Shown: one piece after another, positions 45,955 to 48,590 of the stretch
Layout: the number at the start of each line of letters is the position of its first letter
Position numbering within the stretch: position 1 is the first letter of the stretch
Assembly (NCBI GenBank): GCA_964016885.1
Contig: OZ024745.1
Span: 88,536,001 to 88,600,000, forward strand
DNA: 64,000 nucleotides
Direction: 5' to 3'
Origin: Eledone cirrhosa
Taxonomy: Eukaryota
Notes under the pieces: model-generated
The model's input: the letters and a program-made list of their open reading frames with translations, nothing else
What the model was told of the DNA's origin: nothing
Database searches by the model: none
Position numbers and translations under genes: made by a program

Positions 45955-48590
45955 TATACTCTTCATTTGGCCTGAGATGAATATTTCCAGATACCTTTTA
46001 AGCGTAACTTTCCGTATTTATTATTACTATGAAATATTGATTGTTATTCTGGTATCATATCTCTGTTTTTAGCCTAATAAAATACCTATATGCGTGTATA
46101 AATAATACATGCATATATTTATTTTTTAAAAATCTAATTGAGTTCTTCACACGCAAGGTTAAAATTGTTGAAAAAATTAATTGACCCGCGTGTATATTAT
46201 TTAACTTTCTTGTGTTTCGCGATGACCTCCCCTTTCCGCTTGATGACTGTGTGAGATTTCTTATTCTGAGACTGCTGGAATTTCAAATTTGGCTGTCATT
46301 CTGATACGGAGAGAGACCATCGCTGACATGGCATTAGACATCGGTAAGAGAGGATTTTTTATATCGATGTTTGACGGGCATCCACTGATGATTTATAAGT
46401 GCCCACCTGCATATATTCCTACGGAATGTGTGCAGGCTTCTACATAACCCGGACACATTCTCCCAACTTTTAGAAAACTTATAATGAAACAATTGTTTGG
46501 AAAGGGAGATATATTTTAATTATGTCTCATATAAAATAATACAACTGGCTTTCCGCAAAATACATATAGTTAGCACCCCAAACGTAAAATTGGGATTATA
46601 CTAAGGTATATCCTAATGTTTTGTTTGTTGAGTGAGATGGAAGCCAGTCAGAGTATAGCTTAAAGCTTTCTCTGTTAATGTATTGAATATTGTATATATA
46701 TATATATATATATATATATATATATATATATATGTATATATATATATATATATATATATATATATATATATATATATATATATATATATATTAGGATTGG
46801 AACTCTGAAATAGCAATATGTATATGGATGTATATATAATGTATTTTGCAATACACTTTATGCTTAATTAAAAGCATTTTGAAGACCGTAAGCTATTGTT
46901 TTAAAGTAGTGACAAATTCACTCACTTTGATCTCAGCAAACAGGGGAGATAAGCCGACAAGACTTGTTTCGCTTGTATATGTATATATATACATACATGC
47001 ACACACATATATATATGTACGTATGGATTCACCGAACATTTATTATAATGCTCGATGTGTGAAATTTCGTTTCATTTTTTCTGTTTATATATATATATAT
47101 AATATACATATATATATGTATATACCAGAGTACATATATTTATTTTTTTTTAAATGACCTCCCCTTTCCGCTTGTTGACTGTGTGAGATTTCTCATTCTG
47201 AGACTGCTGGAATTTCAAATTTGGCGGTCATTCTGATACGGAGAGAGGCCATCGCTGACATGGGATTAGATATCGGTAAGAGAGTTTTTTTTTATATCGA
47301 TGTTTGACGAGCATCCACTGATGATTTATAAGTGCCCACCTGCATATATTCCTACGGAATATGTGCAGGGTTCTACATAAATAATATGAAACAATTGTTT
47401 GGAAAGAGAGATATATTTTAACTTTAATTATATCTCATATAAAATAATACAACTGGCTTTCCACAAAATACATATAGTTAGCACCCCAAACACTTAAATT
47501 GGGTTTATACTAACGTATAACCTAATGTTTGTTGAGTGAGATGGTTACCAGTCGGAGTTTAGCTTAAAGCTATCTCTGTTATTGTATTAAATATTTTACT
47601 CTTGATTTGGCCAGAGATGAGATTTTTATTTCCAGGTACCTTATAAGCATGATTTTCCGTATTTATTGCTGTTATGAGATATTGTTTGATTTTTTGGGAA
47701 TCATTTCTCTGTTTTTAGCCTAAGAAAATATCTATATGCGTGTGTAAATAATTACATGCATACATTTATTTTTTTAAATTAATTGAGTTCTTAACACGCG
47801 AAATTAATATTGGTTTTGAAATAACTAATTAACTCGCGTGTATTAAATATTTTACTCTTAATTTGGCCAGAAATTTACATTCCCAAATGCCTTTTAAAGC
47901 GTAACTTTCCGTATTTATTACAGTTATGACATGTGATTGTTTTTAGGTATCATTTCTCTGTTTTTAGCCTAAGAAAATATATATATGCGTTTGTAATTAA
48001 TACACGCATACATTTATATTTTTAAAATTAATTGAGTTCTTAACACGCAGGATTGATAATGTTTTTGAAAAAACTAATTAACCCACGTGTATATTATTTT
48101 ACTTTTCTCGTGAATCGTGGTTGTCTCCCTTTTCCGCTTCGTGACGCTATGATACTTCCTCAGTCAAAAGACTGCTGGAATTTCAAATTTGGCGGTCATT
48201 CGATGCGTGAAGGAACAACTTGACCCACACAAAAATTAACTGTGGTAAGGAATGTTTTCTTATATCAAAGTTTAATGGGCTTCCACTGACGATTTATAAG
48301 TGCCCACCTAAATATTTTCTTACATGAAAATATGTTAGGCTTCTACATAAACTGGAAACATTCTCCAAACTTGTAGAAAACTTATAATGAAACAATTGTT
48401 TGGAAAGAGAGATATAGTTTAACTTTAATTATATCTCATATAAAATAATACAACTGGCTTTCCACAAAATACATATAGTTAGCACCCCAAACACTTAAAT
48501 TGGGTTTATACTAACGTATAACCTAATGTTTGTTGAGTGAGATGGTTACCTGTCGGAGTTTAGCTTAAAGCTATCTCTGTTATTGTATTA
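45955..48590 (+). repeat. Diverged tandem array of ~240 bp (A) and ~450 bp (B) modules; each B carries an HHR with a large helix II insert
   Basis: The order is A-B-[insertion]-B-A-A-B. HHRs at 46381-46501, 47314-47403 and 48281-48405 read tcca-CTGAYGA-tttataagt...acttataat-GAAA-caattg-TT-tgga. Confidence 0.85.

Follow-up and report, generated by a model that had tools for sequence, protein, structure and literature searches.

Hammerhead motifs and repeat copies in the window

The window, meaning the whole 64-kb stretch of Eledone cirrhosa DNA that was analyzed, contains three CUGANGA...GAAAC-AATT-GTT-TGGA motifs, with cores that start at 46385, 47318, and 48286. The motifs lie in copies of a repeat, and no ORF of at least 120 aa was found over the hammerhead repeat region. 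A short ORF that starts in the core (19 codons in copy 1) was rejected as a candidate because it is not kept in copy 3. The repeat copies and their predicted RNA features are listed here.

45950..46690 (+): copy 1, one full unit of subfamily B, a separate insertion between (TA)n tracts
46376..46379 (+): GGGC, 5' of helix I in copy 1, a candidate pairing partner of GCCC at 46401-46404
46381..46502 (+): type I hammerhead 1, core CUGAUGA at 46385-91 and GAAA; helix I 46381-84/46498-501 and helix II 46393-400/46477-84; helix III palindromic CAAUUG; pair 10.1-11.1 U.U; predicted cut after GUU, between 46497 and 46498
46406..46436 (+): hairpin a, copy 1
46438..46475 (+): hairpin b, copy 1, outer stem with one U.U mismatch
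47154..47594 (+): copy 2, a 5'-truncated chimera (B-type 5' part, A-type 3' part)
47590..47845 (+): head duplication of the unit, ~250 bp, which gives the ~1-kb units in subfamily A
47846..48595 (+): copy 3, a full unit of subfamily A, with a fixed 3' end ~195 nt past the cut, then (TA)n
48277..48405 (+): type I hammerhead 3, core 48286-92; helix II 48294-301/48380-87; GGGC 48277-80 and GCCC 48302-05; hairpin a 48307-39 and hairpin b 48341-78; predicted cut between 48400 and 48401

Helix II of copies 1 and 3 (TTATAAGT/ACTTATAA, 8 bp) closes a loop of 76 nt and 78 nt, respectively, with two hairpins in each. Folded alone, helix II and the insert form a two-hairpin multiloop with z scores of -6.6 and -6.4 (500 dinucleotide shuffles), just as a first-pass annotation had proposed when it described a helix II enclosing about 75-80 nt with two hairpins. 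The sequences of hairpins a and b are those given in that annotation; the 4-bp UGGA/UCCA inner stem of hairpin b is 3 bp in most copies. No Rfam hammerhead family matches anywhere in the 64-kb window at the gathering score.

The units had been described as tandem, which is true of copies 2 and 3, since these are contiguous, and not of copy 1, from which they are separated by ~460 bp of (TA)n and other repeats. Hairpin b had also been described as deleted in copy 2. There is indeed a 31-nt loss at ~47380, and it takes most of hairpin b together with most of the helix II 3' strand. The loss coincides with a switch from copy-1-type to copy-3-type sequence: copy 2 is 97% identical to copy 1 before it and 99% identical to copy 3 after it. 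Copy 2 is a broken chimera rather than a hairpin-b-less variant. The loss also destroys helix II, the hammerhead core is likely inactive, and copy 2 is uninformative on whether hairpin b is dispensable.

Several other elements lie in the window. Each unit of a 442-bp tandem repeat at 12908-14185 (2.9 copies, 96% match) has a small motif resembling a type I hammerhead (cores at 12984, 13426, and 13869), with a palindromic CUAG helix III and no Rfam match; the repeat looks like a non-LTR retrozyme of ordinary size. A Penelope-like (PLE-like) retroelement in inverted partial-tandem form spans 54080-62060, with a long RT-like ORF at 58392-60296 (+) and a broken inverted copy at 55630-57858 (-). 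The ORF has a C-terminal GIY-YIG-like part and a Cys-rich linker. A comparison with Pfam and PDB gave no match, so the label of the ORF rests on sequence motifs, by which we take the element to be Neptune-like. In the 3' UTR of the element, at ~61968-62020, lies a hammerhead-like motif whose helix II is long and unbranched and whose helix III is the palindrome UAUAUA. An inverted repeat at 44864-45422 has 217-nt arms, each with a degenerate CUGAGGA...GAAAC...GUC (45077 on the minus strand, 45209 on the plus strand). Folding support is weak, and instead of a MITE the repeat may be the relic of an inverted PLE pLTR; related arms lie at 46790-46990 and 48789-49060. Long near-perfect palindromes between (TA)n tracts are found at 44359-44702, 50128-50297, 50425-50738, and 51135-51546, and a purine-rich direct repeat of ~550 bp occurs in two copies at 49060-50030 (88-97% in matched parts).

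Genome-wide distribution of the repeat

The E. cirrhosa assembly (3.0 Gb) is rich in microsatellites. Exact matches genome-wide number 2,830 for an 18-mer of the core 3' half, 2,874 for the core 5' half, and 6,937 for a downstream 20-mer, all of them lower bounds; reversed controls gave 0, 1, and 0. With 2,830 exact matches against 0 for its reversed control, the core match is not due to chance, and the repeat is present as at least 6,937 units. The units are non-coding, and their arrays are head-to-tail, with monomers of 702-767 bp, or ~1 kb where the head is duplicated. Monomer GC is 0.31-0.35, and five of five monomers are self-paired, with z scores of -5.0 to -8.7 (25 shuffles each). There are several young subfamilies, with copies 96-99% identical over the region searched. 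A search of viral contigs with a core 25-mer gave no matches. The unit is also covered, with variants, by contigs of two sequencing runs (X1 and X4), in which no joints appeared.

Other parts of the unit also have recognizable features. Further hairpins, for example, at window positions 46075-46120 and 46572-46600, apparently keep their pairing across subfamilies. The post-cut segment TTAGCACCCC...CCTAATGTTTGTTGAGTGAG is the most conserved sequence outside the core and is a candidate RT-binding site. One long array of head-to-tail units, on contig C2 at ~312.29-312.33 Mb (loci L015, L027, and L028), is a candidate source of multimeric transcripts.

The hammerhead core and its helices

A motif search gave 231 distinct matches, 5 of them spurious. 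The alignment used for the comparisons below has 19 sequences: the two window copies, 14 medoids of clusters with at least two members, and three divergent F-group singletons; singletons bearing deletions or junctions were excluded. The features of a type I hammerhead are found throughout, namely the CUGANGA / GAAA / UH core and helices I to III, of which helix I is open. There are no parsimony changes at 11 conserved core columns, as compared with 1.4-1.7 changes per column in the flanks and unpaired loop positions. N7 and H17 have three changes each, all within the allowed states. Judging from these substitutions, the hammerhead core is under purifying selection.

Among 190 parsed copies, H17 is U in 138, C in 45, and A in 7, and pair 10.1-11.1 is U.U in 138, A-U in 28, and G-C in 20, varying by subfamily and without an extra base. 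A GUU cleavage triplet is suboptimal, and the window copies carry both GUU and U.U, each of them suboptimal. U.U at 10.1-11.1 is a known active variant (PMC3088659; PMC7229834).

The helices vary in a manner that preserves pairing. Two-sided changes are present in all three helices of the RNAalifold consensus. Helix II is 89.5% paired, versus 77.0% under a tree-aware null (p=0.001), and its terminal pair swaps between U-A and A-U across the insert. Among the first 100 of the 2,830 matches, helix III is always CAATTG or CGATCG and never a mixture; elsewhere in the family, CGGCCG is found, as is a GACGTC loop. That helix III stays palindromic points to cleavage as a dimer, as for PLE hammerheads (PMC4209133). 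The core, helix I, and helix III had all been called invariant from the window copies. The core is, across the 11 columns, whereas helices I and III are invariant in the window only and covary across subfamilies.

The branched domain on helix II

There is evidence that the two hairpins are maintained as structures. Unconstrained RNAalifold on the 19 representatives recovers helices I, II, a, b, and III, with two-sided changes at 11 of 35 pairs. In the named 45-pair structure, which was read partly from the same sequences that it was tested on, 14 pairs have two-sided changes, a number reached by 5 of 500 shuffles; slid controls gave 1-6. Because the copies are related, changes were also simulated on the tree, independently for each column. 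Under this null, hairpins a and b together are more often paired than expected (89.9% versus 75.5%; 0/2000) and have more two-sided pairs (8 versus 4.4; p=0.0105); taken singly, their two-sided counts are not significant (p=0.07 for hairpin a, p=0.11 for hairpin b). The arms of hairpin a also fit each other, with an average of -10.2 kcal/mol for native and -5.8 kcal/mol for swapped arms (94/362,880 permutations, nine lineages). The hairpin a found in subfamily E is a poor folder, at -3.4 kcal/mol.

Loss of the domain is rare. A short loop of ~30 nt or less occurs in a single copy genome-wide under the search pattern used, so forms that keep that helix II but are cut down or spliced have not been amplified. 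Hence, the branched domain is, on present sequence evidence, under selection. This supports the first-pass annotation, which had proposed that the hammerhead is a variant whose auxiliary domain is selected and may serve tertiary contact, protein binding, or RT recruitment. The two-copy comparison in that annotation, in which hairpin a changed in sequence while keeping its pairing, was weak evidence by itself. Engineered insertions in stem II are well tolerated, which tempers the surprise of a branched helix II.

A further pairing links the domain to the rest of the ribozyme. GGGC adjoins the 5' side of helix I, GCCC opens the multiloop, and the two are complementary. The eight columns have two changes among the 19 sequences, and the pairing is intact in 166 of 215 copies and altered in 49; a search of the 215 copies for covariation found no two-sided changes. 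The first base of GCCC (window 46401/48302) shows a recurrent G-to-A change in 10 of the 215 copies, in six clusters and mostly non-CpG, and is a hot spot. In single-sequence folding, a nested GGGC/GCCC hairpin dominates the ensemble (p 0.76-0.91). It is incompatible with the active fold, whose energy is 2-11 kcal/mol higher in a folding model that ignores pseudoknots and dimers; helix I/II pairing probability is 0-0.2 without those terms. GGGC/GCCC may be a loop I-loop II pseudoknot, or else an off-switch or co-transcriptional block. A stem I-II pseudoknot has been predicted in ~40% of hammerheads (PMC3088659), and metazoan retrozyme hammerheads have been argued to need some block in vivo (PMC7229834).

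What might the branched domain do? Its most likely role, for which we see about an even chance, is to tune folding together with GGGC/GCCC so that cleavage stays partial. The GGGC/GCCC pairing could form before the 3' strand of helix II, which is made ~80 nt later, and cleavage would then require that it either rearrange or persist as a loop I-loop II pseudoknot. It is almost as likely that the domain binds protein or serves as a scaffold. Specifically, the domain could act outside ribozyme function, as a binding site for the RT or a host protein or as part of a self-paired RNA body parked on helix II as a place that would tolerate insertions, an explanation that we place a little short of even. 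The whole monomer is strongly structured, and hairpin a keeps its shape while its sequence evolves fast (about one lineage state per column). Moreover, a PLE protein binds its own RNA near the hammerhead and assists cleavage (PMC11167929). Such a role explains less well the conservation, in sequence, of the hairpin b outer stem, the junction lengths, and GCCC, and the complementarity of GCCC to GGGC beside helix I, like that of known loop I-II pseudoknots (PMC3088659). A non-ribozyme branched domain and cleavage in vivo are mutually compatible.

Insertion pattern and 5' junctions

Insertions were sampled by a motif downstream of the ribozyme; the 90 loci picked, minus five duplicates and one without a visible 5' end, make up sample 1 (n=84). 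The 3' end is fixed in 80 of 82 assessable insertions, ~181-195 nt downstream of the predicted cut. As regards target-site duplications, the flanks consist of (TA)n, on the 3' side in 80/82 and on the 5' side in 63/84. The 5' ends are variable, and 29 of the 84 insertions are longer than one unit. These traits (5' truncation, partial tandems, a fixed internal 3' end, and a microsatellite target) are, by analogy with the Anolis PLE (PMC11167929), those of Penelope-like mobilization with internal priming.

The 5' ends are not evenly spread around the ribozyme. With position 0 as the first base past the predicted scissile bond, 21 of the 84 5' ends in sample 1 fall at -2..+14 (16 on the first pass through the unit, five on the second) and none at -36..-3. 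Sample 2 (n=87), chosen by another downstream motif and after six edge or reference-limited rows were dropped, has 18 ends at -2..+14, of which three are common to sample 1 and at least two over-extend into the TA flank; none fall at -19..-3 and seven at -36..-20, where TATAA gives microhomology. Genome-wide, on the minus strand, TA-flanked junctions of subfamilies A and B, counted as one row per locus, number 40 at -1..+8 and 16 at -17..-8, with 11 of the 16 at TATAA. Eight A/B junctions are at position 0 and none at -1 (62 loci, among 100 of 152 matches listed). The edge is sharpest in subfamily C/F, where 22 of 45 loci have the junction at 0, 18 at +1..+6, and five upstream (among 100 of 161 matches listed). 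T's with equal TA|T homology have one junction at -2 and two at -6 (p about 2e-8, among the matches listed); these are hand tallies over a pattern that spans -8..+6, in which 0 and +1 are not always separable.

The pile-up of 5' ends is likely a footprint of cleavage in vivo, and run-off at a cleaved end with slight trimming is the best explanation of the peak. About three-quarters of insertions do not end in the cut window, so that, on this explanation, cleavage would have to be partial on the templates or ends would have to be rejoined. An unlikely alternative is that the structure is real and the ribozyme rarely cuts in vivo, with the pile-up produced by TA microhomology together with an RT that stalls at the helix III foot or at the folded domain. 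TA microhomology does draw junctions, and many A/B 5' ends are at the ATATAT at +11. Helix III begins 2 nt upstream of position 0, and in subfamily C, which has the sharpest peak, it is rich in GC. In addition, RNA-seq reads of the Anolis PLE include none ending at the cut, and insertion occurred in vitro without cleavage (PMC11167929). However, four other TA-homology windows have first-pass hazards of 0.07-0.09, as compared with 0.21 for the cut window, and there is no comparable peak at the feet of helix II, hairpin a, or hairpin b. The edge is sharp to a single base and is seen again in a second subfamily that has another helix III, and the core is under purifying selection.

Proposed mechanism

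We consider it probable that the repeat is a non-autonomous retroelement, namely, a non-LTR retrozyme, that is copied by a Penelope-like RT, and that its branched hammerhead cleaves the template RNA in vivo. Tandem units would be transcribed as multimers, in which two hammerheads would pair through the palindromic helix III, so that some junctions are cut. A PLE RT/endonuclease would nick (TA)n and start cDNA synthesis internally, ~190 nt downstream of a ribozyme. Where the RT runs off a cleaved RNA at its 5'-OH end, copies of ~190 nt or ~930 nt that start at the cut would result; where it reads through uncleaved or re-ligated ribozymes, longer and tandem copies would be made. A bolder version, which we hold only tentatively, is that the two-hairpin junction and GGGC/GCCC form a folding or protein-gated switch, with the Penelope RT picking which junctions of the multimer are cut. 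If so, the 5' junctions would be a nucleotide-resolution record of PLE-type hammerheads cleaving retrotransposition templates in vivo, and linear cleaved RNAs would be copied too, not circles alone.

The unit of ~700 bp had been labeled a retrozyme or a pLTR. The insertion features fit the retrozyme or PLE type. The pLTR label has fared less well: we doubt that the unit belongs, as a pLTR, to an autonomous PLE with ORF-bearing copies outside the sampled loci. In having a palindromic helix III and a long helix II, it is of the PLE type (PMC4209133), and Xenopus retrozymes are sisters of pLTRs (bioRxiv 10.64898/2026.07.22.740005). On the other hand, the arrays consist of head-to-tail units without an ORF. 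A tblastn search with one PLE-like query found no RT-GIY-YIG ORF in register with the repeat in 161 of 338 loci, only PLE pieces that are short or on the opposite strand, and nested where examined. Locus L121, a candidate autonomous parent, was rejected when it proved to consist of nested insertions. By nhmmer, the unit also has no homology to the window's own PLE-like element (55.6-62 kb), and a visual likeness between the 3' part of the unit and the UTR of that element was rejected for want of nhmmer support. "Non-autonomous unit" fits better than "pLTR" because no ORF-bearing parent was found among the loci screened. Finally, the reading of the insert as a spliceosomal intron whose removal leaves a minimal hammerhead, prompted by a GT at 46399-46400 and an AG at 46472-46473 and by the introns that PLEs can carry near the hammerhead (PMC4209133), is largely refuted and very improbable, given that GT becomes GA, GG, or GC in other subfamilies while covarying with its helix II partner, that the donor context is poor, and that a genome-wide short-loop pattern search found no spliced DNA copy.

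Comparison with known systems

How does the repeat relate to known hammerhead elements? First, like metazoan non-LTR retrozymes (PMC7229834; bioRxiv 10.64898/2026.07.22.740005), it is non-coding, is repeated in full or partial tandem, and has a type I hammerhead, a GC content below 50%, and a self-paired monomer, and it shares U.U at the base of helix II with axolotl HHR_Amex2 (PMC7229834). It differs from them in unit length (700-770 bp versus a usual 150-450, and up to 972 in Li et al., bioRxiv 10.64898/2026.07.22.740005) and in helix II (8 bp with a two-hairpin loop of 76-78 nt versus ~4 bp with a small loop; PMC7229834), and a canonical loop 1/loop 2 contact is not evident here. In addition, the 5' ends at the cut imply linear cleaved templates and not circles alone. 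Membership of the repeat among non-LTR retrozymes is provisional.

Second, the repeat resembles minimal PLE hammerheads (PMC4209133) in having a helix I of 4-5 bp, a helix II of 7-8 bp, a palindromic helix III, and many subfamilies with compensatory changes. The published descriptor of those hammerheads has a loop 2 of 3-10 nt and would miss the motif with 76-78 nt. They combine G10.1-C11.1 with an extra base after A9 (PMC4209133), whereas here G-C occurs in only some subfamilies and there is no extra base; the repeat also has no ORF. Third, as in the Anolis Poseidon PLE PAc (PMC11167929), the 3' end of the DNA is fixed downstream of the hammerhead, consistent with internal RT initiation, and targets are AT-rich. 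PAc, in contrast, is autonomous, has a small helix II, and gave no reads ending at the cut (PMC11167929), whereas here genomic junctions map to it.

Other hammerheads share single aspects of the architecture. Loop I-II pseudoknots are described by Perreault et al. 2011 (PMC3088659); the one here is a candidate. The discontinuous Clec2 hammerhead has its insertion in helix I and is type III (PMC6155905), as compared with a structured multiloop on helix II. In the crystallized PK hammerhead, a pseudoknot replaces helix II, so the topology differs (PMC11300833). The nearest hint in published work is the Naiad "half cores" 35-50 nt apart (PMC8557442); no link of the unit to Naiad was found, and in the PLE-like ORF of the window the nuclease-like part is C-terminal. 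As to activity in vitro, eight of nine Xenopus retrozyme dimers showed no cleavage (bioRxiv 10.64898/2026.07.22.740005), PLE-type hammerheads cleave poorly (PMC4209133), and one reconstituted PLE needed no cleavage (PMC11167929).

The first-pass annotation did not recognize the architecture as described, and a search of mostly open-access literature likewise turned up no hammerhead in nature whose helix II bears a two-hairpin junction. The same search gave no case in which 5' ends of insertions were mapped to the cut of a PLE or retrozyme hammerhead. The pile-up of 5' junctions at the predicted scissile bond is a new result. What are its implications? First, insertion junctions provide a purely genomic test of ribozyme activity in vivo that is applicable to any PLE or retrozyme family. 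Second, the junctions argue for linear cleaved RNA as one template and read-through RNA as another. Third, neither Rfam nor the published descriptor picks up the branched helix II, so counts of such motifs may be too low. Fourth, the young, co-existing subfamilies offer natural variants for structure-function work, with G-C, A-U, or U.U at 10.1-11.1 and GUC, GUA, or GUU at the cleavage site.
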